Shown piece by piece: positions 5,215 to 25,900 of a DNA stretch of 38,195 nt (positions are counted from its first letter, which is position 1; the number at the start of each line of letters is the position of its first letter). Source of the stretch: Rhizaria sp. SCN 62-66 (Eukaryota); the NCBI GenBank assembly GCA_001724265.1, contig MEDY01000007.1:124001-162195 (forward strand), read 5' to 3'. The position numbers and the translations under genes are program-made. The notes under the pieces are model-generated. The model had not been told where the DNA came from, ran no database searches, and saw only the letters and a list, made by a program, of their open reading frames with translations.

Positions 5215-7515
5215 TCAGAGCTTAACGTGCCTGTTGCCCCCCTGCGCACCGGCACCGGCGCCGGCGCCCGCACCAGCGCCACCGCCGCGGGGCTTGTTGT
5301 TGTTGCTGTTGCCGCCGTTGCCAGCGTAAGGCGCCGACGTCTGCGCGCGCCCCTGCTGCTGCTGCTGCTTACCACCACCGCCGCCGCCGCCGCTGCGCTG
5401 CTGCTGCTGTTGTCCGTGGCCGCCGCGCGCGCCCGGGCCCTGAAATCCGCCGCGGCCGCCCCTGCCGTTGTTGTTATTGTTGCCGCCGTTGTTGTTGCCG
5501 CGGTAGGACGCGTGTCCCATGCGTCCGTCCCTGCCCACAGTCACCCCCGCGGCGCCGCCGGCACCTCCGAGAGCGCCGGAGGCGGCGCGCAGGGCGGGGG
5601 TCGTGGCGCTGCCGCCGGCGCCGGCGTTAGCGGTGGCCATGGCCGTGGCCTGCTGAACGGGGTCCAGCGCGGCGACGCGGTCGCGGCTGAGACACACGCT
5701 GAGGCGCGCGTCGTTGCCTGCGGTGAGGAGAGGGCAGTCCGCGGAGGCGGAGGGCAGCCAGTCGACGGCGCGGACGAGCCCGCGGTGAGCGGTCGAGGGC
5801 GGGACCACCCACAGGGGGTGCACGCCCGAGGGGGAGAGGTTGCTCACACAGAGGGCGCCGCCCGAAGACGCTGTTGTCGGTATAAGATGAAACAAAACAA
5901 AGAAACATGCGATAAAGATTGTTTGATGAGTGAAGATCTGTGACGATTAACATGAATTCGTCATATTTAATTCATATTTAATTCCGTGAATGTGCTGTCA
6001 ATATCAATTTGCGACGTACACATGACGACGCGCAGCACCTCGGCCTCCGCGTCGTATTGGCAGTCGACCACGACGGTCATGCGGTACTCGCAGGGCGCGA
6101 TGGAGCGGTTCTGCGCGTCGACGAGCACGAGCCCAAGCCCGCCGTCGGCGGCGCCGGTTGAGACCACGGACACGGAGCTGGGCAGCGTGAGCGCCGCGGC
6201 CGACGAGTAGAAGGTCATGCCCTGGCCGCCGAGCGTGCCGGCGTCGTGCTAGCAGCAGGACGCCGCGACGACAACGCCGGCGGCGCCGGACGCGGAGAGC
6301 GTGTGCGCGTCGGCGGCCGCGGGGGAAGAGGAGGCGAGCAGCGAGTTGAGCTGCTCGGCGTCGGCCTCGGCGCCGGAGGGGAGCAGAGACGCGTGAACCG
6401 GGACGGGGTCGAAAGTCATGCCAGCATCGGAAGCTAAGCCGCTGTCGCTGGCGTCAGTGTCGGCGTCAACGAACTCGCGGTAGCTAAGATTGTGGGTGAG
6501 TGCAACAAAGTAACAGAAAATGAGAATATATTAATGTGAGCAATTTGAGCGAGTGACTGAGAGACGTGACAAAGATACAGCCTCAAAGCATAGATGTTAT
6601 AAAATAGAATATCAGTATAAATACGTACAATTCGTCGTTGTCGAACTTCGCGGTGGCACAAATGACGGCGTTGACGTCGTCCCTGATGGTGTTGAACTGG
6701 CTCACCAGCTCGCACTCGTCGATGTTCCACAGCGTCACAGTCGAGGCCGGGGAAATGGCGTACAAAAACCCGTTATCGGGACCGAAAAAGCCCATCTTGG
6801 CGACGGGCTGCTCAGTCGGGAGCGTGTTGTCGAGGCAATCGTCGAGCGAATCACCGTTGACCATCTGCTCTAAGTCGAAGCAGTTGATGAAGGTGTCCTC
6901 CGACCCCGTGAGCAGGTACCCGGGGCGCGCGGGGTGGAAGCGCACCTGCGTGACCTCGTCCGTGTGCACGTCGGTGCACTGCCCGACGGGGGCACGCGGG
7001 TAACGCGTGTCGAACACGGCCACGGAGGGCTTGCCGCCGACCGCGAGCGCTGTGCCCAGCAGGTCGGCCGAGAAGAGCGGTTCGAAGGCCGGCAGACGCG
7101 CCGTGAGCTGCGGGGCGGCCTCGCGCGTGCGCACATCCCACACGGCCGCCACGCCGTCGGCCGAGGCCGAGATGAGGAGGTTGTTGCCGTTGGGCGCGGG
7201 GTCGGGGTTGCCGCCATTGCTCCACACGAGGTCGTGGACTTGGTCGCCGTGCCCGCGCAGATCGCGGTCGAACGACAGCGAGTCCGTCGCGGCGTTAAAC
7301 ACGTACAGCTTGATCAGGTTGTCGGGCGTGGAGGACGTTGCGACGAGGCGGGAGGCCTGCGAGGCGGCGAGCGCGGCGGCGTAGGACGGGACGCCCGCGG
7401 TCACGGCCTCGGTCAGGGCGAGGGAGCACACGTTGGTGAGGTAGTTGTTGTTGAAGGAGGTCGTGATAGCCATCTTGGGCGCAAACGCGCCGAGAATGGC
7501 GGCGGAGCTGCTCAT
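5215..7515 (-). CDS. WD40-repeat protein (WDR89-like), about 668 aa with one in-frame TAG; exons 7515-6629, 6483-6020, 5870-5215
   Basis: WD repeats GHGDQVHDL...SASADGVAAVWDVR, DVHTDEVTQVRFHP...LLTGSEDTFINCFD and AHRGLVRAVDW...LTAGNDARL. Introns 6628-6484 and 6019-5871 (both GTACGT...AG) are phase-consistent. Exon 2 has TAG at 6251-6249. Ends TGA. Confidence 0.82.
6249..6251 (-). other. In-frame TAG within exon 2 of the WD40 gene
   Basis: Reads tcc tgc tgc TAG cac gac gcc (SCC*HDA). Frame is open and GC3-rich on both sides. Confidence 0.8.
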
Positions 7516-8044
7516 GGACACAGACAGCAGACGCTTAAGTGCAGGGATGAAAGCACTGTGGAGTGGGGAAGGGAAGGTGGGGACTGCTGCGAGCCAGAGT
7601 GTTCGTGCGATGGACGCAAAGATGGAATATATGATGTGAGACACATTTCTAAGAGCAAATAATAACAAATTCAATATTTCACAACATATACTTCCTATGA
7701 CTTTGGTAACAGACTGTTTGACGATCATATTATGGCTCGCTGAAGGCTTGAAAATCGCATTGCGCGGTCGCGCAGCGTCTCAGCTGCCACCACCAAAAAG
7801 AAAAACGACAACTGCATCAGCACCTACTACAATCTCCTCAGTGCGCGATACAACGGCACAAATCGATTGTTTCAAGTGGATTAATCGGATATAATATAGA
7901 CAATAAAGCGATCTTTATGAATTCGTGTTTATTATTGCATTCCTGACACATATAGGCCTTCATTGGCCCTCTCAAAGCCGCGAGTGACTGCTGGGAATCA
8001 GTCGTTCAGAACTCGTCTTACAAGCTTTCTGCGTCCCATTGCGC

Positions 8045-8617
8045 TCAGTCAGTCTCGTGGAAGGCGGCAGCAAGGGGCACAAACTCCCGCATCGCCTTGT
8101 GCACGTACGCCGTGTCGTGTGGGTCCTTGTCCTTGCCCCACGTGTATAGCTCAGTGAAGACGCCGTCAACGTGTGCATTCACGACGCTGGCGCTCTCCTT
8201 GCCCTCCTCCGCGCCCGCAGACGCGCCCGCCAGCCCGCGGCCAGGCAGCCCCGCGGCAGCGGGCGCGCCCTGCTCAAGCACGACGCCGATTGTGTCCTGG
8301 GGCAGCGCGAGCTTGAGTCCCGTGAGCCCGCGGCCGCGCAGCGCAGCCTTGTAGATGGTCTTGTCGTCGGCGTAAGTGACTGTGGACACGTACTCGGGCG
8401 CGTCAGTGGAGATGGAGCGCTCGCGGACAACGTGCGGGGCGGGGCGGAAGAAGGCGGAGACGTTGGCGGGGCCGTCGTGCGAGATGGCGGCGGGGATCAG
8501 GTGCACTGGTGACTTGCGGAGGCGGCGGAGCTCTTTGGCAGACGACGGGAGAGGGAACGCCACGGGCTGCGAGAGCGCGGAGAGCGCAACATCATCGGTC
8601 AAGTCAGAGCTACTCAT
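8045..8617 (-). CDS. RNASEH2C: Ribonuclease H2 subunit C, 190 aa, intronless
   Basis: Motifs VHLIPAAISHDGPANVSAFF, AALRGRGLTG, LPQDTIGVVL, FTELYTWGKD and EFVPLAAAFH. Ends TGA. Confidence 0.9.
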   Translation of the reverse strand: MSSSDLTDDVALSALSQPVAFPLPSSAKELRRLRKSPVHLIPAAISHDGPANVSAFFRPAPHVVRERSISTDAPEYVSTVTYADDKTIYKAALRGRGLTGLKLALPQDTIGVVLEQGAPAAAGLPGRGLAGASAGAEEGKESASVVNAHVDGVFTELYTWGKDKDPHDTAYVHKAMREFVPLAAAFHETD

Positions 8618-8859
8618 TGCGGAGAAGCACTGAAGGTGGGTGGCAAAAGAAAACAAAGCACGTTAAAAGCGCATGGAAGGAATGGGAGGAAGTGAACAGG
8701 CGAAGTGAGAGATTGGGCGCGAAGCGATGAGCACTTGTGTGATACGAAAGAATTACATCGTCAATAGCCGCATAATTTTGTTCATAATCATAAAACACAA
8801 AATCTCGTTTTTATCTATTATAGTACTCACACAGGTCGCGCTCTTACGGCACAAAAGCC

Positions 8860-11800
8860 ATGTATCGTCTCGGCGCCCGGACTCTCTGGACCTCACGGTC
8901 CCTGGCGGCCGCAGCCACGGCCCCACCGGCACCCACTCGCGCCCACCCTGCCATCCCCGCGAGCCTGACGCTTTCCATCACGCCGCCTGTGACGGCTGTG
9001 ACTGTGCCGCGTCGTGTGGATGCGCTGGCGCGTCGGTACGGGCGGCAGCGCCGACCCAAGGTGGTCGTGCTATCGGGCGGCACCGGCGTCGGCAAAACGG
9101 CTCTTTCACTTCTGCTCGCCGCATCGCTGCCCGGCGGCGGCGAGGTTGTCTCCGCAGACTCGATGCAGGTCTACCAGGGACTCGACATCGGCACCGCCAA
9201 GGCGTCGCGGGACGAGCTGGCCGCGCTGCCGCATCACTTGATCGACATCGTTGCGCCGGGCGGCGACGACTACTCTGCTGCACGCTTCCACCGTGACGCG
9301 ATGACCGCGATTAAGGTTCGTCATAGCTCATTATCTCTACATGTATTTTTGCTGTCTTGATATGTTGGTTCATATTCTGAGTTGTATTGATCTATCCATG
9401 TTGTATCTTGCTCAGCATCTACGTTTGCTGACTCTGTGACGTCATGTAGGACATCATTGCGCGCGGCAAGACCCCGATCATCGTCGGCGGCACCGGCCTC
9501 TATCTGCAGTGGCTGCTGTTTGGTCTGCCGCGGTCCATGGCAGGACCCGGCACGCGCGCCGAGGACCGCGCCGCCACTGACGCCGCCGTCAACTCACTGC
9601 TGCAGCTGCTGCCTGAGATGGAGTCGGCCACGGGCAAGCTGCGGAAGCAGCGCAGCGCGCTCACGGTTATTTCGCACGATAACAGCATCAACAATAACAA
9701 TAATAACAATGCACCGGCCGCTTCTACTCAGCAACAGCAACAATCCGCCACGGCAACGCCTCATAGTGAGACTGTGACTGAAACTGCAGCTGAAACCGTG
9801 ACTGAGACTGCGCCAGCGTCTGCGACTGAGACTGAGGCACAGCAGAGCGGTGATGACCTCTCGCGCTGGCACGCGGCCCTCGCCTCTACGGGCTGGTCCC
9901 CCGCCGTTCTCGCCTGGATCGACTCGCTCCGCATCCGCAACGACCGCTACCGACTCACAAAGGCGTTGTAGCACTGCGTGCGCACTGGCGGCGCGTTCGT
10001 TCCCGACGCGTTCCGCGCGCAGACCACGCAGCGCGGGGCGGGCGTCAGCGCGCTGCGGCGTGGGGAAGGCCCGCTCGACGCTGTCGAGTGGAGCCCCGAG
10101 GCGCTTACATCGGCGAAGGGGGAAGCGGGCGCGAGCGGGGATGCGGATGTGCGGCGCTGGGTCAGTGGGCAAGGCATTGTGAGTACTGGGGTGACCGTGA
10201 CTAAGATGCTCCGTCCGAAGCAAAGTCAGTTTGTGCAACAGCAAAACAAGTCAAATGCTCGCAACGCCTCCGCTGCACGCACAGTTGACGACTGGCTTGA
10301 TGCCGGCCTGCCCTTGCGTTCCCACGCTAGCGCGGACACTGTCGCGCACGTGAACACGAACAGTCCCGTCAGCAACGCGCTCGCTGCTGATGATAACGAT
10401 GGCGACGATGACGCCGCGGGCCTCGTGCACTTCGCTGACCCGCGCCTGTTCTACCTGCGCCTCCCGCGGCCGCTGCACTCGCGCATCGTCGACCTGCGCT
10501 GCGAGGCCATGCTCACCGCGGGCCTCCTGCAGGAGACTCTCCTGCACTCGAGTCCCACCGCGCCGGGCACCGCGGGGGGCGCGCTCCCGGCCGGGTCGGC
10601 GCGCGCCAAGTCGATCGGCTACGCGCAGGCGCTGGGGTTCTTCGAGAGCAAGGTCGCCCTGGACGCCCTCGCGGGGCTAAGTAGTCCTGATGTAAGTACC
10701 TCGTCGCCCAGTGTAAGCAATAGCTCGAGTGACGCCTCTGATATGAGTGAGCCGGGTGCCAAGCTCATGGGGGCTGAAGGAAGCAATGATTTTAGGCTCA
10801 CGAACGCTGTCTGGGCTGGACTCTATGTCTCACCTCGATCGCAAACTCCGTCTCTAGAGACCGACTTGGGCAACACCTCACCGTCGCAGTTGCAGTCACT
10901 GCAGTACCGTCCCCCTGCCCCCGCACCCGTGCTCCAGCTCTTTGGCCGCTTTCTGGGCGAGTTCCAGCGCGGCACGCGCGCGCTGGCCCGCAAGCAGGCG
11001 GCGTGGGTGCGCGCGAGTCACGTGTTCTACGAGCTCGACGTGCCCGTCTCGGCCGCGGGGTTCCTGGAGGCCGTCGGCGAGTACGACGCGCGGGAGGAGC
11101 GCGCGGCGCAGGACCGCAAAGATCGCGAGAAAAAGAGCAGCAAAAAGAAGAACGGCAACAAAACAGCAAGTGATGATGCCAACGATATCGCTGCAACTGT
11201 TGCCACTCTGAACAGCTGTTCTGTTTCCGCGAGCAGCGCTGCCTACAACGCCGCTGTCGCCGCTGTCGCCGCCGGCTGCAGCGGCCTCCCGTCGATCTGT
11301 CCGCTCTCCCCGTGCGCGTGCGCCGCGACCCCCGCCCGGCGCCGCGCGGCCCGCGCCGCCGCGCTGGCCGAGGCGGCGTTGTGCCCTCCGTCGCACGTGC
11401 CGCTAGACGTGCTGGCGCTGTCGCACCCGGACTTCGCGGCGGAGCACAAGGCGGCGCTGCGGCGCGCGGCCGGGGAGGTGGCCGACAGCGTGGCGATGCG
11501 GCAGGGCGCGTGGTGGGACAGCGTGATGCCCGCCAAGGCGAGGCTCGAGGGCAGGGAGTGGGGGGCCGAGTGGGGCCACGACTCAATCAACAGCGACACT
11601 AACAACTCGACCATGAACAGTAGCGAACAGAACGGTAGCAACGAGGAGAGTGAGTCGAGCCTCCCTGTGAGTGCGGTAGCAGCGAACTCCGCTCCCAAAC
11701 GTGCAAAGAAGAGCGCGCTTGACCAGGAAATGAAGACGTACATCCCGATCCCGCTTGTGTACACGGAGAAAGACGTTATCATCGGTCTCCGTGGTGCGCA

Positions 11801-12209
11801 GTTGCCGTTCAAGACGCAGGCTAAGGTGGCCGCGACGCCAGCGACAGCTCCTGTGTTTGCCGCAGCGGCAGCGGCGCTGACAGCGAACGATGAGAGCATC
11901 GCTGATCTTGCTCGTGATCCTTCTGCGAATGTTGACAGTAGCTTTACCGACGCGGCCGTGACAACGGACAACGACGCTGTTTCGGCTGCCACGAACAATT
12001 ACGCAACTAGCACTGCTGTCAGCCGTGGCGCCTCTATCGCCGACCATATGTCTGCCTCAGAGACACTGTCGGGCGAGGCTAGCCAGTTGATGCGTGAGGT
12101 CAAGGTTTTGTGGACCACTCTCAACGCTAAAGCGAAAGCCAAGGTTACTACTAACAACGCTAACAACAACAGCAACGTTAGCAATGAAGTCAGCAAGCCA
12201 CTAATGTAA
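8860..12209 (+). CDS. miaA: tRNA dimethylallyltransferase (MiaA/plant IPT9-type), about 1071 aa with one in-frame TAG; exons 8860-9315 and 9450-12209
   Basis: P-loop [41 protein letters not shown] and [10 protein letters not shown]. After the TAG come [19 protein letters not shown] and [11 protein letters not shown]. Intron 9316-9449 (GTTCGT...TAG). Ends TAA. Additional in-frame introns in the low-complexity inserts cannot be excluded. Confidence 0.9.
9969..9971 (+). other. In-frame TAG in the conserved NDxxRxxRALE motif of the tRNA dimethylallyltransferase
   Basis: Reads aag gcg ttg TAG cac tgc gtg cgc act ggc. ORFs 9537-9971 and 9978-12209 are in the same frame. Confidence 0.9.
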
Positions 12210-12952
12210 CACAAAGATACTTTAGATTTAATAACTCGTTATTTAGACACCTTATTTATTAATATTCGTCGAGAAAGGCATATACAGTCTGGAAAATTGC
12301 TGAAACAAAAGAAGATTGTGTGTATTATTGTTCACGAGTGCGTGTTGCAGATGAAACAAGACACTTGCACTCACTTTCAGTTCCACAAACACGTATAGCT
12401 TCAAAACAAACAAAAATGAAGTGATATGCGAAAGCACAGTGCAATCACACGCACACGTTGTGCGTTATTGCTGCTGTCACAGTCGCATTCACTCTTGTTG
12501 TCGCGCGCGCGACTCAGGTGAAGACCACGAAATGTACATGTTGAGACAAAGAGACAGGAACTAAAGAGAGATGTGCACAATAGTAAAGATTAAAATGTAA
12601 AGACAAGTTGCGAAAAGCTGAGAGATGATAAGTGAGCAAAAGAATAAGGAACAAAACTGACGAATATAAGATTAATACACTGGTAGCTGAGGTAATATTA
12701 AGAAACAAACATGCCTACGTACATGCTGCATAGTACAACACCGTCTTTCATACAAAACGTCGGTAAATAAACACTAGAGATAAAGGTATAGCAACGAACA
12801 AATCCAATACTATTTTGAAAAAATATGATGTTTGGCAGTTAAAAACTCGTATGATGATAAACCGTTAACAGAAACAAACGACAGTTTCGTAACACAGGAA
12901 ATCACAAAATGACGGTCTCACTGCGTTTATCATGCGCACTCAGTCACTCCAA

Positions 12953-15900
12953 TCACTCGCCGCGAGTGACCTTGGCGTCGTATGCGGAGTAGGGGTCCAT
13001 GGGCGCAACCTCAGCGCCGCCAAGCCTCCACTTGGGGTTGAAGCGTTTGTAGGCCTGGATGGTGAGCACAGCCGCGACCACCGTAATCATGGCCAGCAGC
13101 ATCCCCATGCACACGGCGAGCGACACCGCGGGGGCGAGTTTGTCGCACGCCGCCGTGCGCGCCTGGATCCACAGCGGCTGCGTCAGCGCGCAGTCGAGCT
13201 GTCCGCCCACGGCCGCGAGCGCTCTCTCCGCGCTGGCTTCGGTCGCAGTGATGCCCTTGAGCTGCGCCGCGAAGGCCGCCGTGGGCGTGAGCGTGGGGAC
13301 CGAGGACAGCGCGGTGACGATGGCGCTGGCGTTGATGCCCTGCGCCTGCAGCAGCGCGGCAGGCGCGAGAAGAGCGTCCACCACGGCGGGCGCGGCGCCG
13401 TCGCACTCGAGCAGGTACGATATCGCAGCCGGCACGTCGACGTCGCTCGTGAGACCCAGGAACGGGAAGTCGGCGGCCTTGAACGTGACGTCGCCCAGCG
13501 CGGTCTGGATGTGCGTCACAGGCACGTCGCAGTGGTCCGCGGCCACGGCGGCAAGGGGCAGCTCGACCGCGGAGAGCGCAAAGAGGAGGATGGCGCACGC
13601 GACGAGCGAGTGGCCGGCCAACATCGTGAGGCGCGGCCACTCGAGGAAGTACGACATCGCGGCGATAAAGGCGAGGATAAAGGGCATGAGCACGAGCACG
13701 TTCATGAAAAGCAGGCGCGTGCCGTCCCACTGGTCCGCGTCGTCCTTGATGTCCTCGCGCGTGTCAGTGTAGCTCGCGTACGTCTTCTCCACCGAGTCGC
13801 GGCGTGGGGCGACAGACCGCAACAGCCCGGCCGACAGGGCCTGGCGCCGCGCCAGCAGCGCGTGAGGCACCGCGGCCGCCAGGTCGAGGTACGCGGCCAG
13901 CTGCACGCGCGTCACCGTCGCCAGCGGCGCGCCCTTGACGGCGCTCGCGCTCGCGCTGGCGGCGGCGGCGTCGCGGATGTCCGTGAGCCGCGCGGCGCGG
14001 TCGGCCGCGGACTCGGCCTCGAGCGCGGCCGCGTCGGCGGGCGCGTCGGTGACGGGCGTCGAAGTGGCCAGCGAGGCCGGGTCCGCGTCTGCCTGCGCCA
14101 GCGCGTAGTCGTTGCTGTCGGCGAGCACGGCGAAGGCCTTAAGCCCCGGGGACGAGGCCGCCCCGAAGACCGGGGCCGCCGCGGCCTCCAAGTCGGTCAG
14201 CGCGGTGCCCAGCGGAGCCGCGTCGGAGAACGCGTACATGTCCACGCAGTCCGGAAACGGCGTCGTGTCGGACGCAGAGCTGGACGCGGTGGCGCCGAGC
14301 AGGCCCGTGTCGAGCACAGCCACGGCAGCGGCCTCGGCCGCGGACGCAGCGGTGGCGAACGCGGTCAGCTTGGCGCCCGCGGCCACGCCCGCCGCGGCGA
14401 CGGCCTCGAGCGCAGCAGTACTTGCACTCGCGCCGGAAGACGTCGAGGAGTACGGCAGCGTGACGGGGGACGGGTATGAGGCCTGAACGGATGTCTTGGC
14501 GCTGTCGATGGCGGTGACGGTGGCGTTGGCCTGCGAGACCGCGGTGGCGAGTCCCGCGGCGACGGCCTCGAGCGCAGTGGCCGAGGGCACTGTGAGCAGA
14601 CCGACGGGATACGATAGCTGCGACACCGCCGTCGTGATGGCGGTCACGACCGAGGCGGCAAAGCCACCCGAGGACACGAACACGGCGTCCGCCAGCGCCA
14701 GCGCGGTCTGCGTCGACGACACGGCCACGGCGAGCGCCGGCGCGCGCTCGTAGACGGAGCTGTAGGGCGCGGCGATGCCGTTGGCGTAATCGGTGATGCC
14801 CGCGAACGCGGCCGCCAGCGCATTCTCGGCCGCCGTGGCCGCCGTGGTCGCCGTGGCGAGGTCAGCCTGCAGCGAGGCCGCGAGCAGAAACAGCTGCGAT
14901 GACGCGCCCAGCGTCGAGCTGACGCTGACCGTGCTGTTGGGGCTCGTGTCGACGAGCTGTGTGATGGCGAGCGCGATCGTGAGCGCCTGCGACGCGGCGT
15001 CCTCGGCCGCGGTCAGCGCGGTCTCCGCCGCGGACAGCGTCGCAAAGCCGGCGGCGTCGAGCGCGGCGAGCTCGGCGGTCGCCGCGGCAGCCGCGTCGCT
15101 GGCGTCCGCGGCGGCGGGCGACGGCAGCGGCAGCACCGTGGACACGGCGCTGGCGAGCGCCACGGCCTCCGTCCCGGCGGCGTCGGCCGTGGCCTGGAGC
15201 GAAGAGATGCCGGACGCCGCGGCGACGCGCGCGGCGTAGTCGCCGCCGGTCAGCGCCGACGCGGCGGGCGCGGGCAGCGCGGCGGCGAGCGTGTGCAGCG
15301 AGGCCGCGGCAGGGTAAGCGGCGGGGAAGCACGCCGCGTCGGACAGTGCGGCTGCGGCGGCGAGAATGTCGTTCTCGATCGTGTCTGCGTCGGGCGCGGG
15401 GGTGCCAGTGAGGTAGTCCGACGCGGTGGCGATGCGGGCGAGCGACGCCGAGAGCATGGCCAGCTGTGAGCGCGTGGCCGTGGCGGTCGACGTGACGGAC
15501 GCGAGCAGCATGCGCAGAGCTGCCACGGCGGAGCGCGCGGCAGAGGCGGCGGACGCGGCAGCCGCGTAGTCGGGCGCAGCGGTCGTCGCGGCCGAGATGG
15601 CGGCGGTCAGCGCGGCGGAGGCGGCGACGGTGACGGCCTTGAAGGCGCGAAGCTGGGCGCCGAAGAAGGTCGTCGTAACAGTCTCTTTGACGGGGTCCGT
15701 AGCGGTGCCTGCGCCGAGCCCGTCGCTGCCGGTGAGCCCAGTGTTGACGTCGCGCGCGACGGGGCGCACCGTGGCCTCGAGCAGGTCCAAGTATCCCGCC
15801 GGGTCGGTATAGTTGTTCGCCGCCACGGCCGCCGCGGACGCCGCGACTCTCGTGCCGCGGGCGGCCGGGAGCAGCGCGAGGTGGGCGAGAATCAGCGGGG

Positions 15901-17857
15901 TAACTGTGCGCAGGTAGTCGAGGTCCTGGTCCGCGGCGGCCTTGTTGATCTCGTCGCTGTACTGCTGCAGCGCCGCGACCGACAGCACGCCCGTGCTCAC
16001 GCTCGAGCTCGACGAAGAGCTCTCTGTGAACGACGCCAAGATGGTGTTGGTCGCGCGCAGCGCCGCGTCCGCCGTCACGGCCCCGCGGGCGACTGCGGCG
16101 GCGTGGGCCGTCACGGTCGCGCCCTTCCCCGAGGCCGCGGAGGAGCTGTTGAGGGCCAGTGGGACGGACTCGACCGCGGTGAGACTGGAGCCGCTGGCCG
16201 ATGAGACGGCAGTGGCGGTCACATACACAGCGCCGGCGCCGAGCGCGTTGTAGTAGTTGGCGGCCTCCCAGACCACTGCCACGTCGGCGGCCGTCGTCGC
16301 CGAGGTCGGGACGGTCTCGAGCGCGGCGCCCGCAGCGGAGACCGCGCTCGCCGCGGCCGCCAGCGCGGGTAGCGCCGTGTCGCGCGTGGCGTGCGCGAGG
16401 GCGAGCGCCTCAGCGGCGCGCGGAGCGTGGCCGAAGCTGCGCGCCGTGCCGCCGCTCTCGACGTCCTGCGTGTCAGTCAGCACTGCGAGCGCGGCCGCGG
16501 CCGTCGCGGCGGACGGTGACAGCACGGCGGTCGCGGCGAGCGGGTGTGCCACGGCCTCCAACTGCTGCAGCGCGGGCGTGGCCGTCTGCAGACAGCTCCC
16601 CCAGTCGGCGATCACGGCCGCCGCGGCGGTGACAGCGGCGGCGGCGACGGCGTCGTCGTCGGCCGGGTCGGGCGCCGTCGCGTTGGACGTGGGCGCGGCG
16701 GGCAGCGCGGAGACCGCGGTGGCGAGCGAGTCCGCTAGCGTCGTCGCGCGGTCCCCGGTCTCGGCCAGCGTCGTGAGCAGCGGCGAGAAGGCGCGGTAGT
16801 AGCTCATGACCGAGTCGGAGCTGTCATACACGTCGTCGATGGCGCGCGAGAGGTCGACGTTGGCGGTCCACGCGAAGGCGCAGATGGTGCACATGCCACC
16901 CGCCAGCACCAGCAGCGTAATCGTATAGCCGCGGGCGGCGCAGAGCGAATGGTAGCGCGTGGCGTGGTTCTTGCCGCCCGTGCCGCAGGCGCGCATGACG
17001 CAGAAGACAAACCAGAAGATGCAGAGGGCGCCCGCGACCACGAGGTTGACGAGCCACATGGTGCCCAGCGAGCCGAAGTACGGGTCGCGCATCAGGCCCG
17101 AGAAGGTCCACGTAACCTCAGAGAGCGGGCGCGAGATGTGGTGGCGGCTCAAAGTGACCTCCGTCGTGTTCGTCGTGTCGGTGTCAGCGGTGTCGGAGTC
17201 CGCGGTTGTGCCGGTGCTGTCCGAGTCCGACGATGGGGATTCCGACGAGGTGGGTAGCACGGGGGAGCGCGCGAGCGAGCGGACCAGCTTGACGGCGCCG
17301 CTGCCGGGAGCGGAGATGTCGCTGACCCAGCGGGACGTGAGCGCAGCCGAGTCGCGCAGGTCGAGCGGGGAGAAGGCGACGCTGGCGGCGGCCGCGGACT
17401 GGGGATGAGGCGCCTGCGAGCTGCTGGAGCGAGAGCGCATGAGCAGGAAAGAGCTCTCAGCGGTAGCGTTTACCTCAGCGTCATCGTCAGGGTGGTATGC
17501 GGGGGAGTGCAGCGCTGTCGTGGTGAACAGAGATGACTTGTTGAAGTTCGCCGCTGCAGTTAAAAGAGGAGGCGGGGGGCGGACAGTCGCAGTCGCTGTG
17601 GCGGCGACTGCGGTCACAAACGCGGTGCCGGGAACGCAAAACGCGCTGCCGGGGACAGAAGGGTCCGCGGAGATGCAGTGGCGAGCGACAGCGGCGGAGG
17701 CAGAGGCAGCGGAAGAGGCGGCGGCGGAGGCAGCAGCAGTCTCGAGGAAGAGAGGGCTGTGCGCAGAGGCAGCGACTGCAAGTACGAACAACACAGACAA
17801 ACCGAGAAGCAGACCAGCGGCAATAAACCGCGGTCGTGGGGACATGCACGAAGGCAT
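12953..17857 (-). CDS. Large signal-peptide plus five-TM protein with prominin/tweety-like topology, about 1634 aa, intronless
   Basis: Signal-like FIAAGLLLGLSVLFVLAVAASA; TM1 followed by a Cys-containing loop (FCVMRAC); TM2 ending AWTAN; very long Ala-rich loop; TM3/TM4 followed by ADHC; LDC...ACD before TM5. First ATG at 17857. Ends TGA. Confidence 0.72.
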   Translation of the reverse strand: MPSCMSPRPRFIAAGLLLGLSVLFVLAVAASAHSPLFLETAAASAAASSAASASAAVARHCISADPSVPGSAFCVPGTAFVTAVAATATATVRPPPPLLTAAANFNKSSLFTTTALHSPAYHPDDDAEVNATAESSFLLMRSRSSSSQAPHPQSAAAASVAFSPLDLRDSAALTSRWVSDISAPGSGAVKLVRSLARSPVLPTSSESPSSDSDSTGTTADSDTADTDTTNTTEVTLSRHHISRPLSEVTWTFSGLMRDPYFGSLGTMWLVNLVVAGALCIFWFVFCVMRACGTGGKNHATRYHSLCAARGYTITLLVLAGGMCTICAFAWTANVDLSRAIDDVYDSSDSVMSYYRAFSPLLTTLAETGDRATTLADSLATAVSALPAAPTSNATAPDPADDDAVAAAAVTAAAAVIADWGSCLQTATPALQQLEAVAHPLAATAVLSPSAATAAAALAVLTDTQDVESGGTARSFGHAPRAAEALALAHATRDTALPALAAAASAVSAAGAALETVPTSATTAADVAVVWEAANYYNALGAGAVYVTATAVSSASGSSLTAVESVPLALNSSSAASGKGATVTAHAAAVARGAVTADAALRATNTILASFTESSSSSSSVSTGVLSVAALQQYSDEINKAAADQDLDYLRTVTPLILAHLALLPAARGTRVAASAAAVAANNYTDPAGYLDLLEATVRPVARDVNTGLTGSDGLGAGTATDPVKETVTTTFFGAQLRAFKAVTVAASAALTAAISAATTAAPDYAAAASAASAARSAVAALRMLLASVTSTATATRSQLAMLSASLARIATASDYLTGTPAPDADTIENDILAAAAALSDAACFPAAYPAAASLHTLAAALPAPAASALTGGDYAARVAAASGISSLQATADAAGTEAVALASAVSTVLPLPSPAAADASDAAAAATAELAALDAAGFATLSAAETALTAAEDAASQALTIALAITQLVDTSPNSTVSVSSTLGASSQLFLLAASLQADLATATTAATAAENALAAAFAGITDYANGIAAPYSSVYERAPALAVAVSSTQTALALADAVFVSSGGFAASVVTAITTAVSQLSYPVGLLTVPSATALEAVAAGLATAVSQANATVTAIDSAKTSVQASYPSPVTLPYSSTSSGASASTAALEAVAAAGVAAGAKLTAFATAASAAEAAAVAVLDTGLLGATASSSASDTTPFPDCVDMYAFSDAAPLGTALTDLEAAAAPVFGAASSPGLKAFAVLADSNDYALAQADADPASLATSTPVTDAPADAAALEAESAADRAARLTDIRDAAAASASASAVKGAPLATVTRVQLAAYLDLAAAVPHALLARRQALSAGLLRSVAPRRDSVEKTYASYTDTREDIKDDADQWDGTRLLFMNVLVLMPFILAFIAAMSYFLEWPRLTMLAGHSLVACAILLFALSAVELPLAAVAADHCDVPVTHIQTALGDVTFKAADFPFLGLTSDVDVPAAISYLLECDGAAPAVVDALLAPAALLQAQGINASAIVTALSSVPTLTPTAAFAAQLKGITATEASAERALAAVGGQLDCALTQPLWIQARTAACDKLAPAVSLAVCMGMLLAMITVVAAVLTIQAYKRFNPKWRLGGAEVAPMDPYSAYDAKVTRGE

Positions 17858-18679
17858 GCGAAGGATACAGGAGGGCAAGCCGACCCTGACTGAGGATGTG
17901 GGAGAGAGAAGGAGAACCAACAAAGATGGGTTTGTGCAAAGTTCTTTGAGTTTCGACTGCTGTGGAAGGACAATGAGAAGTCAAAAGAGTGTGATTAGAA
18001 TTTTGTAAATCAAAATAGTGTGACTCGTATAATTTCACCACGTTGCATCATATTCACAGGATATAGAGCGTAATAAAACCATTTTGAAGAAGAACAATGC
18101 ATGTTGAATGTGTGCGGGGGATGCGCCCAACGAATGGTAGCTTGCGCGCTAATAATATCCTTTCGGGCAAAATCGTCGTGATATAGTGTAAATCGTTACG
18201 GTTATATTCTGATATTTCATCAACATCCGATTTCCCCGACTCAAGCACCTTAAATTTCATGCAGGAAAAGGGGCCCTCCTCTCTCTCCATCGACCGATCG
18301 TTTTCGGCCAGTCTGTCAGCATGCAAACTAGACTTGTGGTGATAACGAAAAGAGCTTCGATATGCGGTATAACAAAGGCATACCGTTATTAACCTCAAGA
18401 TTCAGCGCGCTTTAAGTACTTTTTATTTAAAATCGTGAATTATTACTGTCAGATCAAGATCTTTTCAAGATTGTGTATCACCATGAACCCTCAAAATTTA
18501 GTTTGGGACGCAAGCTTAGATTATTTCTTCAAGTGGCCTACTGCTCCCGAGTGCCCTCCACACCATTGAGAGCAAATTATCGTCATAGAATGATGCAATT
18601 CAGCCACGTTGCCAGGAGCTCAAAGCTGCGTGCTGTCGTCGGACTTGCTGTCACGACGAAGAATGAACGGTGACGACAA

Positions 18680-19440
18680 TCATAGTCTTACGAATCTTGT
18701 GTGGTTACTCCACCAGCAGTCCCATAGGGGTCGCAGAGATGCAGCGTGTTGACATCCCAGAGCAGACGTCAAAAGTCGTCTGAGCCCACAGTTATGCCAC
18801 GCGTCTGACCTGTCGGGAGGAGCGCAAGAGCAATCTTTGACCTGCCCCAGCAACAGAGCAAAGTCACGTCCTTCTCCTTCGCAGCGAGCAGTGTGAGCAC
18901 TCGCGCTTTCGAGCTGCAAGCTCGCCACTTTAGCCTCGGCCAGCGCACACGCGATTTCAGCCTTGCTGCACGAGATGTCTCAGCTACAGCCAGCTTCGCC
19001 GCTGCCCCGTCTTAACCGCTGGAGAAAGCAGCCCTCACAGCAGCCTCAGCCGGGGCCAGTTGCAAAAGCTCGACACTTATCCCTGCGCACTTAAGCTCCG
19101 CCGTTGCCAGATTGAGCGCAGTGTTGGCCAAGGTAAACTCGGCTTCTGGAACGAGACTGGGGAGCCCACGCTTCGCTGCGAAGAGTTGCGCCGAGCCCTT
19201 GATAGCCAGCTGGGTCGAGGCAAAGCCGACGGCGTCCGTAAGGGTTGCCAGCAGATTGTTATGCGACTCTGAGTTGCTGGGAACATGTTGTGGTTAAATG
19301 AACGCAACGGTGGTGGCCGGAGCTGAACCTAAAGATGAAGTGTCCTCGGCGGAGGCACTGTGAAGCTCACCATTAAGGGGACGCTTGCGCGAGCTTTTTG
19401 TCGTGCTTGGACACTTACAATCCTGTGACATAGTATTCAT
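18680..19440 (-). pseudogene. Probable decayed protein-coding gene of unknown family
   Basis: One frame from ATG 19440/19431 reads protein-like (KSSRKRPL...NNLLATLTDAVGFASTQLAIK...ANTALNLATAELK) but has TAA at 19296-19294 and 19014-19012, then an apparent frameshift near 18965 into KAEIACALAEAKVASLQLE. GC is intermediate. Confidence 0.4.
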
Positions 19441-20013
19441 CAGTCTGTTGAATTTTAAAATCAAGATATTTTGCGGAAATAGGAGCTCATGAGCTCTAGG
19501 AAGGGAAGAACACGAGTTGGTACACGTGCACTGAAGAGGCCTTCGCGGAACAAGTTGTCACAACACGCGCAGGAACAATGCAAGACAAAAAGTAATCACT
19601 TAATATACAGCATGTATAATGAAATTAAATAATCTTACTTGCTCGTCGTTCAAGGACATCTATACAAGTTGAGCAACATATCTCTTCGCGGTCAATGGTC
19701 TCTAGTTCTGGGTGACCGTAAGACGATGGTCGTGTCAACTTGCTAATTCAAGAGGATGTATCTCATCACAAAATCCGTCAGGAAAGATACCAACCAACTC
19801 TCTGTGATATATCTTGCTTTTTGTGTCTGTCTTGTCAATTAAACATCTAACACTCATAACTCACCTCTCTACGACTCACTTTTGTTTCCATTCCTCACTC
19901 TCATCACTGTTCCCTGATCAGTCGTTACCTCGGCCCCCAACAGCGCGACACGAAGGCGCCCAACGCTGTGCTGTCAACGCTGAGGCTTGGCGCGAGTCCT
20001 TCCACTCTTAACG

Positions 20014-22434
20014 ATGTCTGTCATCGCCTCAGGCTTTGACGGCGTCGAAGTCATCGGTCCGTTCCGCTTCCCTTCATTCACGAACAAATCTCTTCCTGGT
20101 ACCTTCTCATATGAGTAAAACTCACTGCTTTTGTCTGCATTGTGTATCTGCGTTATTGTCACAGACATTAATCTTGAAAAGCTGCTCGCCTGGTTGGCGG
20201 AACGCTCCCTCATTGCCCCCAACGCGACGGAGCTCGTCAAGGCTCTGCACAACCACATCCGCTCGCTACTCGCCTCCGTGCCGCAGGAAACTAAGCCGGA
20301 CATCGCGCCGCTGCTCTTTCCGCACGCGCCCGCACTTGTTGCCGCTATACTGGCGTCCGACTCTCCGGCCACGCTTGCCAACGCCACAAACCCGGCATCC
20401 TCATTCATCGCATCCGTCTGTTCGTCAACATCGTCATCGTCGTCGACGGCGTCGCTGTCGTCGTCGGTCGCGTCCGAGGCCGCAGCACACAGCATCTCCT
20501 ATCCGGCCTGCCTCGCGATCACCGCCGCGCTTGAGCGCCACACGACCGTGCGTCTGCGCCGCCGCGCGCGCACCCTGCTGGGGTATCCCGCGACGCCGCT
20601 GTTGCGCTCCTGGACCGCAGTGGCGACCGCGTACGAGACCAAGAACCTCTTCCTGGCTGAGGCCGCGCGCGCGCTCTCCGCGCTGGCGCTCACCGCGCTC
20701 CCGGCCGGCCAGCGCGCCGTTGCGGCGGCCCGCAAAGCCGCCGCGGAGCGTGACGCGCGCGCTCTGACGCTCGCGGCGGGGGCGGCGCGCGCGGGGCGGG
20801 CCTTCGACGCCGACGCGGCCGCGGCGGGGCTCGAGGCAGAGGCGGTGGCCAGCGTGGCGCAGGCGGCCGCGCACGAGGCCGGTAAGATTACCGCAAAGGC
20901 AGACGCGGCTGTTGCTGCAGCCACAGCTGCACTAGCAGCAGCTAACGCAAACGCAAAGAACAGTGCCATAGCCAATTCGACCGCGAATGCGGCGACGTTA
21001 GCTGCGGCTGCGAGCAAGGCTGCCGACGCCGCGGACGACGCGGCCGCGGCCGTCGCCGCGCTGGCCCGGGCCCCGCCGTCTGCGCTGCCCGCCGTGGTCG
21101 AGGCTGCGCTGGCGCGCTCCAGCGGGGGCCGCACGCACGCGCTGCTGCTCGAGGTGGCCGCGCAGACGCGCACGGCGGGCGTCGCCGCGGCCGCGCTCTA
21201 CTACGGCGAGTGGGCGCGCCGCTGCGACGGCGCGGCGGCGACTGCCGGCGACTGCGAGCAGAAGCAGTGCGTGCGCGACTGTGGGCAGGACGCTACTGCG
21301 GAGGGTGACTGTGAGCGCGGAGCGATAGCGAGGCTGCGGCACGTGCTGCCGGCCCTGGCTGCGGTGCTCACGCAGAGCATTGGCGAGACTGTCACAGACA
21401 CGGCGCCCTCTGCGAACAACGCAAAGTCTGCAAGTGCGGCTGTAACCAGTGGCCGTGAGCAGCGGCAGACTGACGGCGGCGACTGTGGTGATATTGACTG
21501 GGGCGAGATTGGGTTTGATGTCGAAGCAGACTCGACAGTCGCCGCTGAGAGTGACAATAATAATGCGAACATGAAGAATAACACAAACAGTGCTGGCGCT
21601 GGAGAGATTGACTGGAACTTTAGCGTGATCGAAGAAAACGACTCTTACTCGAATGACTCAAAACTTGCGGACTCTAGTTCGACTCTTGTTTCTTCTTCTG
21701 CGTCAGCTGAGAACAAAGATAAGCCTCGGCGACTTAACTTATGGCTCGCCGAGTCCCGCCACGCGCTCGCCGCGGACCTCACTGAGCTCGAGTCCTTCTA
21801 CACGATGCGCCTGAGCGAGATCCAGAGCAACGAGAAGGCGACGGCTGCGGGCATGGCGTTGAGTGGCGTCATTGCCGCGTTCCTGCCCGTTGCGACAATC
21901 AACGTTGCTGCGCTGCTCGATGAGTGCACCGGAGCGAACGACAACGCAACTAAGGCTAACGGTGACAGCAGCGATAAGACCGCTGCGTCCCCGTTATCCT
22001 GGCTCCGGTCCGACGCCGCTGCGGCGACCGCTGCCACCGCGCCCGGCGTCATCCTTCTCACCGACACCTCGCGGATGCAGTCCTGGTTGTCCCAGTCCGT
22101 GGCTCCCCCTCTGCGTGCACTGACCCAGGGCTCTGGCCCGCTGCAGCAGCACCTGCTGCTCACCGTCTCGGCCCGCGCGCGCGCAGCGGCCGCGGCGCGA
22201 CTGGCGCAGGCCGCGCTGCAGGGCCCCGCGCTGGCGGCGCGCGCTGCGGCCGCGGCGGCGCGGGCTGCCGCGGCGCGCGCGGAGGCCGCGAAAGAGACCG
22301 CAGAGGGGGAGGGCGTGCGGCGGCGCGCGAAATAGCTTAAGACGAGTCTGGAGGACGCGCTGGGGAGGATTATCAAGAAGAAAGTCAAGCTGTTTGTCGC
22401 TGCAGAGTCGACAGCGGCGACCGGCGACGAGTGA
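20014..22434 (+). CDS. CDK5RAP3: CDK5RAP3/C53 (UFMylation adaptor, ER-phagy receptor), about 770 aa with one in-frame TAG; exons 20014-20056 and 20165-22434
   Basis: N-terminal IDINLEKLLAWLAER (intron 20057-20164, GTCCGT...CAG, phase 1), YETKNLFLAEAARAL, IDWG/IDWN motifs, RHALAADLTELESFYTMRLSE, LQQHLLL, and C-terminal AK*LKTSLEDALGRIIKKKVKLF. Ends TGA at 22432-22434. Confidence 0.88.
22333..22335 (+). other. In-frame TAG in the C-terminal helix of CDK5RAP3
   Basis: Reads gcg aaa TAG ctt aag acg agt ctg gag. The 32 codons after it resemble the family's conserved terminus (TKELQKLIEADISKRYSGRPVNLMG-like). Confidence 0.78.
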
Positions 22435-22949: not shown

Positions 22950-25900
22950 TTACTCGTCAGCGACATCGGCAACGGGGGACGCGACGGCGGAGTCCGCAGC
23001 AGGGGCCTCGGCGGCAGCGGCGGCAGCAGACTCAGCGTCAGCGGCAGGGGCAGCGACAGGGACGGCCTCAGCAGGGACAGCCTCAGCAGCGGCGGGGGCA
23101 GCAGCCTCAGCCTCAGCCAACGCCGGCTCAGCAGCCTCAGCGGCGGCGGGGACGGGCGAGGCAGGCTCAGCCGCCGCAGCAGCAGCATCAGCAGCGGAAG
23201 CAGAAGCAGCGGGAGCCTCGGCCTCGGCAGCAGCGGGGGCGGCGACAGGGGACGCGGGGGCCGGCACGGGGGAGGCGGAGGCCTTAGGGCTGGCAGGCGC
23301 CGCAGGCTCTGCAGCAGCAGCAACGGGAGCGGGGGCCTCAGCGGCAGCCTCAGGGGCAGCGGGGGCCGCCTCAGCCGCAGCCTTGGGGCTAGCAGGCGAG
23401 GGCGCGGGCGCGGCGGCAGGGGCAGCCTCGGCAGCCTCGGCGGCGTGAACGGGCTGGGCCTCGGCAGGGGCGGACTCGGCAGCGGCCTCGGGGGCAGCGG
23501 CAACGGGCGCCTCTGCAGCAGCAGCGGCGGCGGGCTCAGCCTCCACACCAGCGGGAGCGGCCTCAACGTCGGCGGCCGCAGTCGGCGCCTCGCCCTGAGC
23601 GGCGGCGGCGGCGGGGTCAGCAACCTCACCATGGGTGGCAGGCGCCTCGGCAGCAGCCTCAACAGCAGCCTCGGGGGCGGCCTCAGACGCAACAGCGGCG
23701 GCTGCGGCGGGGGGCGCGAGGGCGGCCAGGTCGAGCGGCAGCGGGCGCAGGGTGACGAGGCACGGGGCGCCGTCGGCACCGACGATGGGCTCGCCCGTCG
23801 CCGACGAAGTCAGCGGGGCCTGGAACTCGTTCGCCTCCTGAAATAGCAATAGTGAACACAGAGGTAGCATAGATGTGAGTGAGGAATCATGGAGAACAAA
23901 AATCATGTAGAGTGAGTTCACATAAATGTGATCAATGCTGTTCATCTAGATATCGCGTGTTTAGCGTACCTGGATCTCGGTGGCCGACGCGTACTGCGCG
24001 GCGAGCGCGGCGACGTCGATGTCGGCCCAGCCCAGCAGGCGGTCCGTCTTGACCTCGAGCGCGGCCGCAGCAGCCGCAGCAGCCTCAGCGGCAGCCGCAG
24101 CAGCGGCCTCAGCCTCGGGACCCTCGGCCGCAGCGCCCTCGACGGCGGCTGCGGCGGCAGCAGCAGCGGCGGCGGCGTTGGCAGCGGCGGCGGCGTCCTC
24201 GTCCGACACGTCGAAGAGCGAGAAGCGGTAGATGGTGGCGGTGCCGCGCGGGAGCTTGATCGCAGCCTGCACGGGCGCCGGGAAGTGCGGCGACGCGTTT
24301 CCGGGCACGATCGCGGTCTGCGCGTAGTGCTCGAACACAGCCTCCTTCTCGGCAGCCTCGCCGTCAGCGGCGGCGCTGGAGGACTCGGCGAGCGCGTAGA
24401 CCACGCACATGGGGTTCACGGTCCCGCGCTCGGGCTCCAACAGCGGCAGGTTCGCGCACGAGATGGCGAAGCGCACCGCGGGGATGGTGCTAATGTCCGC
24501 GTGCGCGGGGTCTGCAGCGGCGGCGGCGGCGGCGGCCTCGGCGGCAGCGGCCTCGGCGGCAGCAGCGGCGGCGGCGGCCGAGTCCGCAGAGTCTGTCTCG
24601 GTCGCGGCGGGGCCCGATGCGCCGGCGGGGGGCACTTCGGCCGTGGCCTCGGACGACGCGGACGCCGCGGCCGAGGCGGCGACGGCGGCGACGGCGGCCT
24701 CGGCGGCGAAGCTGCGGTAGGGGAACTGCGGGACGTCGCTGCAGAGCGTGAGCACGAGTTCGGCGTGTGTGTCCGCGCCGGCGCCGCTGGGCACGGGCGC
24801 GCCGTCGTTGCCGACGAGCGGCAGCACGAACTCGCGGGGCCCCGCGGGCGTGAGCACGGCCTCGAGCGCGTCGCGCAGGTCGACCTTAACCGAGGCGAGG
24901 ATGTCGCGCTCCGAGATGGAGCCGCTGTCCTCGACGTCGAACACGGTAAAGCGGTACGTGATGGGCGCGATCACGGGGTCGTACTCGAGCGGCGCGACGC
25001 TGTGCTCGTCGTACACCGGGTTCGCGCTCTGCTTGACCCAGTCCGACTGGCCCGCGATGGCGTACATGCCCGTCGCGTTGTCCTTGCGGTACACGACAAC
25101 AAGCGACGACGTTGACGCGGGCAGGTGGCGGCACGAGAGCCGGAACGCCAGCGACTGCGACGCCGCGAGCGAGGCCTCGACCGCGGCGGCGAGGTCGGCT
25201 GGGCTCGCGTCAGCGGCGTTGAGCGGGCCGCGGGCGCCGCGCGCGCCGTCGCCGCCGTTAAGCCCGTCCGCGGAGGACGAGGACGACATGGTGACGGGCT
25301 CGGCCTCGACGGGCGGCGGCACGGGGAACACTGTCACGCGCACGTGCGCGTCCTTGAGGGGCTCGCCGTGGCGCGAGAGCGGGGCCGTGAACTGGCGCTG
25401 CGTGTTGGAGGCGACGGTGACGAAGGCCTCGGCCAGCAGGTCGGCCTCATCGACGCGCGACAGCCAGTCGGGCTGCGCCGCGTCGGCGACGTCGTAGAGC
25501 GCGAGGCGCAGGCGCTCAGGGCGCTTGGAGTAGACGTGGACGGGGATGAGGCCCTCGAACGCGGGGTCGTGGTCGGGCACGCCCTTGGGCTCAGTGTGGC
25601 CGATACCGATGGTGTACTGGTCGTTATCGTCGGCCACAGAGCACACCACCACGGGCTCGCACTTGCCCGAGGCCTCGGAGACGGGCAGGTTCACGGCCTC
25701 AATGCCGAGCTCGGCCAGCGAGACCACGCCGACGGCGGAGGCGCGCAGCGACACGGTGGCGCGCGGGATCGGGGAGCCGGAGGCGTCGAGCAGGGCCAGG
25801 TCGATGGCGCCGCCCGCGCCGCCGCCGGCGCGGAGCACGGTGTAGAGGTCGACGACGGCCTCGCCGAGGAGGTTGCCGTCGTGCGGGGCGCGCTCGTGCA

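Follow-up and report, generated by a model that had tools for sequence, protein, structure and literature searches.

A 38,195-nucleotide stretch of contig MEDY01000007.1 from the assembly filed as Rhizaria sp. SCN 62-66 (the whole of which is termed 'the window' below) carries three conserved genes in which a TAG triplet is found within the coding frame: a MiaA/IPT9-type tRNA dimethylallyltransferase, a WDR89-like WD40 protein, and CDK5RAP3. The reading favored here, to which a probability of roughly seven in ten is given, is that UAG does not act as a terminator in this organism but as a rare sense codon, most likely for glutamate, and that genes end at UAA and UGA. Regular decoding of TAG as an amino acid is, in itself, judged likely. 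The more specific proposal that UAG alone has been reassigned to glutamate, with both UAA and UGA kept as stops, is put forward tentatively, at somewhat less than even odds, and is provisional on genome-wide data.

Conserved sequence on both sides of three TAG codons

The first TAG (9969-9971, plus strand) lies in the MiaA/IPT9-type gene. Its first exon (8860-9315, plus strand) begins with an ATG and encodes an arginine-rich N-terminal extension followed by a P-loop (G-G-T-G-V-G-K-T), which fits the pattern G-x-T-x-x-G-K-[ST] and aligns with the P-loop of homologues. An AT-rich, phase 0 intron of 134 nucleotides (9316-9449, plus strand; GTTCGT..TAG) separates it from exon 2 (9450-12209, plus strand), which extends to a TAA stop at 12207-12209 and contains long low-complexity inserts. 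The residues M-T-A-I-K directly precede exon 2 at this junction, and the joint is collinear with both the Pfam profile (positions 48 and 50 on its two sides) and a custom hidden Markov model (HMM) described below. Three pieces of the gene exceed the 23.6-bit cut-off of the Pfam IPPT family (PF01715): exon 1 (54.2 bits, profile 1-48), the start of exon 2 (57.9 bits, profile 50-131, with scores of 57.9-63.9 bits across the versions scored and the highest obtained with the TAG read as E), and a segment 3' of the TAG in the same frame (10419-11060, plus strand; 26.5 bits, profile 155-220 of 243). The last piece corresponds to the C-terminal half of the domain, and bears out the claim of a first-pass annotation, made from the sequence alone, that half of the catalytic fold would be found downstream of the TAG. 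Under the standard code the frame of the IPPT domain is interrupted by this one TAG, and it is open if the TAG is counted as a residue.

The position of the TAG within the family was examined with a custom profile. An HMMER search with the translation of 9450-10040 against 1.84 billion representative proteins returned 16 matches, most of which cover only the first 50 or so residues; 11 of these were used to build the profile, and the organism's own open reading frame (ORF; P0004), two unrelated repeat proteins (P0006 and P0014) and two short fragments that stop short of the motif (P0013 and P0017) were excluded. The spliced MiaA protein matches this profile as one collinear domain (198.3 bits, HMM 3-275, residues 21-511). 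The conserved motif is encoded at 9939-9992 (plus strand), where the TAG is followed by H-C-V-R-T-G-G, and the TAG is aligned with the 'e' in the consensus NdwYRlkRaleillesgg, the E column of the family motif N-D-x-Y-R-L-x-R-A-L-E. It occupies one column without a gap, and the spacing to the next S/T-G is unchanged. The placement of the TAG at the 'RALE' position of the enzyme, and the exact preservation of spacing if it stands for one residue, were both proposed in the first-pass annotation and are both upheld by this alignment; the motifs RCEAML, IGY and ARKQ..W, which it described as intact beyond the TAG, are likewise all present and aligned to the profile.

The TAG is approximately codon 326 of about 1,070, inside the catalytic domain and some 30% into the protein, and 745 codons remain open in frame after it. 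Matches of the MiaA/IPT9 type in the search (with P0006 and P0014 excluded) are 142-603 residues long, and the extra length of the window protein is due to long low-complexity inserts between the conserved blocks. These consist of runs of N, Q, T-E-T-A, S and A, and occupy 9650-9840, 10140-10420, 10680-10900 and 11100-12200. In its P-loop, its IPPT domain (in three collinear pieces) and its N-D-x-Y-R motif the protein resembles MiaA and plant IPT9, and it has C-terminal motifs in common with eukaryotic IPT9-like homologues; it differs from MiaA and plant IPT9 in its length of about 1,070 residues with long inserts, and in the TAG inside the domain. On the reading favored here it would be a mitochondrial-type tRNA dimethylallyltransferase.

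An intron spanning the MiaA TAG was considered and rejected. Because the TAG fills exactly one profile column within a conserved motif, any GT..AG intron ending there would delete residues of that motif, as the first-pass annotation had argued for the use of this TAG as a splice acceptor. Several further searches were uninformative: exon 2 of MiaA gave no match at E 0.01 in a sequence search of solved structures, short pieces around the TAGs gave no match in Pfam, a word-indexed protein search with MiaA or CDK5RAP3 was swamped by low-complexity words and returned only the organism's own ORFs, and a metagenome scan for MiaA relatives yielded 588 pattern matches, none of which was confirmed.

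The second TAG (6249-6251, minus strand) is located in an internal exon of the WDR89-like gene. The first coding exon (6629-7515, minus strand; ATG at 7515-7513), the same ORF as database entry P0021, is followed by a phase 2 intron of 145 nucleotides (6484-6628, minus strand; GTACGT..TTAG), which is spliced to give the in-frame joint D-N-D-E-F-Y-R-E-F-V-D. The exon that carries the TAG (6020-6483, minus strand) encodes a V-D-C-Q-Y-D motif downstream of it and has a probable GTACGT donor at 6019-6014; about 77 codons are open in frame after the TAG. The region of the last exon (5215-5865, minus strand) extends to a TGA at 5217-5215, with the exact acceptor not fixed. A protein search with the WD40 ORF gave 28 matches, some of which bear the name WDR89. 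The closest relative, P0022, is 61% identical in the WD part, matches both sides of the 145-nucleotide intron, and is itself an ORF that reads through its own introns. Its alignment to the TAG exon (E 9e-33, 157 residues at 46% identity) extends to either side of the TAG, opposite which P0022 has a glutamate. A 16-residue motif 3' of the TAG also matches residues 319-334 of Ectocarpus WDR89 (E 7e-5), and the next WDR89-like exon matches residues 343-385 of the same protein (E 0.009).

The third TAG (22333-22335, plus strand) lies 32 codons before the TGA (22432-22434) that ends the main exon of CDK5RAP3 (20155-22434, plus strand, with an approximate 5' limit). The ORF at 20119-22335 ends in this TAG and scores 90.4 bits against Pfam CDK5RAP3, with its best stretch at profile 220-376. 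GC-rich coding composition runs through the 32 codons after the TAG as far as the TGA at 22432 and then gives way to AT-rich sequence. When these codons (22336-22431, plus strand) are added, the full-length protein scores 96.4 bits in place of 90.4 and is matched in three stretches in place of two. By themselves, the 114 residues that precede the TAG do not match the family; with the 32 codons added and the TAG read as E, they match profile 379-498 of 502 at 12.2 bits, collinear with the stretch at 220-376. Since profile 379-498 is matched only when the codons beyond the TAG are included, the C-terminal end of the CDK5RAP3 family lies after the TAG. In searches of solved structures, the full-length protein found human CDK5RAP3 only at E 0.26, and the tail alone found designed repeat proteins only.

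A frameshift at the TAGs was also considered and rejected, as the same frame goes on at all three sites. With two further in-frame TAGs in conserved genes, it is far likelier that TAG is read as an amino acid across the genome than that the MiaA gene has suffered an isolated lesion.

Coding segments, gene ends and recurrence of the TAGs

The window was scanned for coding segments with a codon-usage model trained on its own supported genes, giving 33 rows, of which 21 (those with the best-scoring frame at their place) were kept; the other 12 are lower-scoring overlapping frames. The kept rows contain six TAGs. Three are found at segment edges next to AT-rich introns, where those at 9447 and 1913 are splice acceptors and that at 23948 comes after a GTACGC donor and an in-frame TAA; the other three are internal, at 9969 (plus strand), 6251 (minus strand) and 22333 (plus strand). 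In total, the 21 segments comprise 8,810 codons, including three TAGs, no TAA and no TGA, and no frameshift; GAG occurs 386 times, GAA 38 times and CAG 252 times. A test of codon usage in 30-codon flanks did not discriminate between sense and antisense frames (the TAG ranked second, at 14106, was an antisense one), and a listing of flanks by G+C content at third codon positions (GC3) is blind to the difference between sense and antisense frames that share third positions; the 30-codon test was not used as evidence.

These counts bear upon the possibility that the three genes are simply young pseudogenes or truncated alleles, with their function either gone or taken over by other copies. Under the standard code an in-frame TAG is by default a premature stop, and the abundance of GAG, CAG and AAG, each one step from TAG, means that TAG would be the commonest nonsense codon to arise. 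Such an explanation would nevertheless require three lesions among about 13 genes, all of them TAG, in coding segments that harbor no TAA, TGA or frameshift; the 745, about 77 and 32 codons that follow the TAGs remain open, with family motifs intact downstream; and the MiaA TAG is kept in two strains (see below) that otherwise differ mostly by synonymous or in-frame changes. On balance, inactivating mutations are considered improbable.

Gene ends were determined by reading each segment to the next TAA or TGA, with those found after a donor site set aside. Approximately 11 ends were collected in this manner, of which eight are TGA, three are TAA and none is TAG. Three are anchored by a Pfam domain that ends a few residues before the stop (TAA in NIP7, TGA in RNase H2 subunit C and TGA in CDK5RAP3); the others rest on the end of the ORF and a drop in G+C content. 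Two features of nuclear codes with UAG reassigned to sense are seen in the window: in-frame UAG at residue-aligned positions in several conserved genes (MiaA, WDR89-like and CDK5RAP3), and a lack of UAG among terminators, the latter in a small sample of which only the three ends named above are domain-anchored.

The TAGs also recur in other data. The MiaA TAG is contained in Logan contigs of runs X2 and X3 (record 9898-10829) and X4 (record 8499-10065), with no differences around the TAG. X2 and X3 are filed under different studies and years, yet their contig records and depths over window positions 8000-13000 are identical; they are probably one data set filed twice, and are therefore counted as one witness. 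X4 comes from another study, eight to ten years later, and represents a distinguishable strain, with six substitutions at 10607-10838 and an in-frame 3-base insertion at 10412. All six substitutions lie downstream of the MiaA TAG; four are synonymous and two non-synonymous, and five of the six fall at third codon positions of the frame that spans the TAG. The strain differences cluster in one of the low-complexity inserts of MiaA. Among database ORFs, P0004 ends at the MiaA TAG, and P0001 and P0002 begin at a GTG two codons later, on two and five contigs; the CDK5RAP3 ORF P0003 ends at its TAG on four contigs. The TAG of the WDR89-like gene is found in a metagenome contig of the same organism from the Joint Genome Institute (L001), which is identical at 200 of 200 bases, the TAG included. 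The MiaA TAG is real DNA in at least two strains. A sequencing or assembly error at 9969-9971 is, accordingly, scarcely credible: the same TAG, without any difference, is present in contigs from two further studies, those of one study representing a distinguishable strain, and the WDR89 TAG recurs in the independent contig.

The identity of the residue and the rarity of UAG

The residue best accommodated at each TAG was assessed from the same alignments. At the MiaA site, the Pfam IPPT score is highest with E (63.9 bits), followed by Q (62.1), K (61.9), S (61.5) and D (61.4), and then by A (61.3), X (61.2), Y (60.9), L (60.4) and W (60.4); this ranking, with E and Q at the top and Y, L and W low, supports the earlier suggestion that the TAG stands for Glu or Gln and not for Leu, Trp or Tyr. 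The corresponding column in the 11 homologues of the custom profile contains E in five, A in two, D in two, V in one and Q in one. At the CDK5RAP3 site the scores are E 12.2, Q 11.6, K 11.2, D 10.9 and R 10.7 bits, and the tail with S, A, Y, W, L or X at the TAG gives no Pfam match. E therefore comes first at all three sites (at the WDR89 site through the relative's glutamate), with a margin over Q of 0.6-1.8 bits at two of them. Summed over the three sites (by hand arithmetic, with the WDR89 site entered through the relative's glutamate and ordinary substitution scores), E is ahead of Q by about 4 bits and of K and D by about 5. This amounts to a lean toward glutamate and not to a proof.

By analogy with other organisms in which UAG has been reassigned, such decoding would call for a tRNA for glutamate with the anticodon CUA, derived from tRNA-Glu (CUC), and for a release factor eRF1 that is blind to UAG yet still recognizes UAA. 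The MiaA gene would then be intact, its mRNA being translated through codon 326 into a protein of about 1,070 residues.

Several observations weigh against this reading or limit its support. The evidence consists of three codons in one 38-kb window, and the choice of residue depends on a few bits at those three sites; the MiaA column varies, with E in only five of the 11 homologues. TAG is also very rare, at 3 of 8,810 codons (0.034%), or three against 424 GAG and GAA combined (about 0.7% of Glu codons), a frequency of about 0.03% that lies far below that of the rhizarian exLh, where UAGs number in the hundreds over tens of genes (384 in 71 genes according to PMC5304391). The absence of TAG among about 11 terminators is weak evidence on its own, and the 4:2 ratio of synonymous to non-synonymous strain differences rests on six changes only. 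ARAGORN found no tRNA genes in the window, and eRF1 is not among the genes that it contains. A polyA metatranscriptome (X7, an RNA library that can hold DNA) contains contigs for the MiaA region only at 10012-10211 and 10875-11202, with none over 9969 and no joints, a result that favors neither side, and no RNA contig crossing any of the TAGs was found among those examined. Finally, the base that follows each of the three TAGs is C, and the next codon is CAC in two of them (CAC-TGC, CAC-GAC and CTT-AAG).

The last of these points, together with the rarity of TAG, speaks for the principal rival, namely that the standard code applies and that termination at UAG is leaky, with near-cognate tRNAs (typically those for Gln, Tyr or Lys) reading through it part of the time, without a dedicated tRNA, to give full-length protein at a reduced yield that is tolerated or used. 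A C after the stop is the leakiest context in eukaryotes, and Gln is the second-best residue at two of the sites. In programmed readthrough of the UAG-CAR-YYA type, as in plant viruses, the stop is again followed by C, and the CAC seen twice in the window is a further likeness; the window sites differ in that the full CAR-YYA motif is lacking and in that they lie inside conserved domains instead of at gene ends. In programmed readthrough the stop comes late in the conserved protein and an optional C-terminal extension follows it, and this is not the arrangement found here: the MiaA TAG lies in the catalytic domain and the WDR89 TAG in an internal exon, unlike typical C-terminal readthrough extensions, and only the CDK5RAP3 TAG is near a protein end, where the family's own C-terminus follows it. 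Furthermore, in-frame TAGs occur in three of some 13 genes and TAG terminates none, and glutamate, which is not expected from near-cognate decoding of UAG, scores best at all three sites. Leaky termination is therefore regarded as unlikely, and as the main rival nonetheless; pseudogenes, correction at the RNA level and artefact are progressively less likely. As a separate observation, the stops at gene ends mostly have G as the next base, and the C after all three TAGs may be due to chance, given that there are three sites.

Correction at the RNA level, either by editing (for example of U to C, giving CAG) or by an unconventional excision that yields an ordinary sense codon, would be compatible with the lack of an RNA contig over any of the three sites. 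The X7 contigs that were compared with the MiaA region show no joint, and a normal intron cannot remove the MiaA TAG without the loss of motif residues, the spacing there fitting exactly one codon. Site-specific nuclear mRNA editing of such a type is not known as a general mechanism, and an explanation of this kind is thought very improbable.

The source genome and its relation to known nuclear codes

The window represents nuclear DNA of a eukaryote, with GC-rich exons and AT-rich introns and spacers: GC3 is 0.65-0.92 in the exons of those ORFs that were measured, and of 38 1-kb bins, 27 have a G+C content of 57-75%, whereas the remaining 11, AT-rich spacers among them, have 40-56%. Introns are of the GT..AG type, with donors such as GTACGT, GTACGC, GTATGT and GTTCGT. 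In addition to MiaA and CDK5RAP3, Pfam identifies NIP7, an ornithine-decarboxylase-like gene, the WD40 protein, RNase H2 subunit C, a C2-domain protein and a protein kinase; there are no Rfam matches in the window. The ORF of the C2-domain protein (minus strand, 1,428 codons) ends at a TAA directly after a GTACGC donor (window 23940-23970), and its frame reopens five codons past that TAA for 331 further codons (22950-23945), so that the gene probably continues across an intron, the position of its acceptor not being fixed. An open frame of 1,675 codons at 12953-17980 (minus strand; GC3 0.88) has the highest coding score in the window and is without a Pfam match, and the segments 18000-20000 and 37000-38195, with a G+C content of 40-50% and nearly no coding signal, form unusually long spacers in an otherwise gene-dense window.

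The affiliation of the organism was approached through the WDR89-like protein, for which a tree of 20 rows was built. The window protein forms a separate clade (96/94) with three environmental relatives (P0022, P0023 and P0026; 37-61% identity by search, with P0022 at 66% over 221 tree columns), and this clade lies outside that of oomycetes and brown algae (99/95) and outside the fungal and amoebozoan rows. The best named WDR89 matches are from brown algae and oomycetes, and an affiliation with stramenopiles was considered on that account and dropped because of this position. With few labelled rows and no rooting, the tree places the organism nowhere; the separation of the clade from all named sequences suggests an unsampled lineage. 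The only result of a metagenome scan with P0022 was a contig of 1.9 kb from the same organism, and not the contig of P0022 itself. A search of the Atlas with NIP7 gave no informative taxon.

Changes to nuclear codes that split UAG from UAA are few, and in the literature that was searched UAG alone is known to encode Leu, Gln or Ser. Passages of PMC5304391 describe the rhizarian exLh, with UAG as Leu, and Iotanema spirale, with UAG as Gln; those of PMC11687900 add Scotinosphaera (Ser), phyllopharyngean ciliates (Leu or Gln) and Protocruzia (Gln). Where UAG is read as Glu, in the accounts given in parts of PMC11687900, PMC12153298 and PMC10553269, UAA is reassigned as well: peritrich ciliates and Blastocrithidia read both UAA and UAG as Glu, and Oligohymenophorea sp. 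PL0344 reads UAG as Glu and UAA as Lys. The window organism resembles the UAG-only codes in the presence of in-frame UAG at conserved positions of several genes, in its use of UAA and UGA as the only terminators, and in having been recognized from sequence data of an uncultured organism; it differs from them in that Glu is indicated instead of Leu, Gln or Ser, that its genome is GC-rich, and that its use of UAG is far lower than in exLh. Like the second group it probably reads UAG as Glu; in contrast to that group, UAA ends at least NIP7 (a few residues past the PUA domain) and MiaA. It has GT..AG introns of 134 and 145 nucleotides where these were measured, multi-gene contigs, and a G+C content mostly of 57-75%. 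Ciliates and trypanosomatids probably differ from it in these respects. Among the openly accessible full texts searched, no description of UAG by itself as Glu came to light, and none of such a code in a eukaryote from wastewater.

There is an immediate practical consequence, in that gene callers truncate or split the genes of this organism: MiaA is public as two ORFs (P0004, and P0001/P0002), and CDK5RAP3 appears without its C-terminus (P0003). DNA of the window recurs, at minimum in partial matches, in metagenomes that several studies obtained from reactors, wastewater, biofilms and fuel cells, and the organism should therefore be recoverable for a full test. If UAG alone has indeed been reassigned to glutamate, this would represent an undescribed nuclear code in a free-living, GC-rich wastewater eukaryote, at a very early stage at which UAG accounts for about 0.7% of Glu codons, and would thus offer a natural test case for the capture of a stop codon while it is still rare. 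A further UAG-only case, in a GC-rich organism outside the ciliates with very low use of UAG, would bear both upon the question of whether reassignment needs prior loss of the codon and upon the manner in which eRF1 can separate UAG from UAA.

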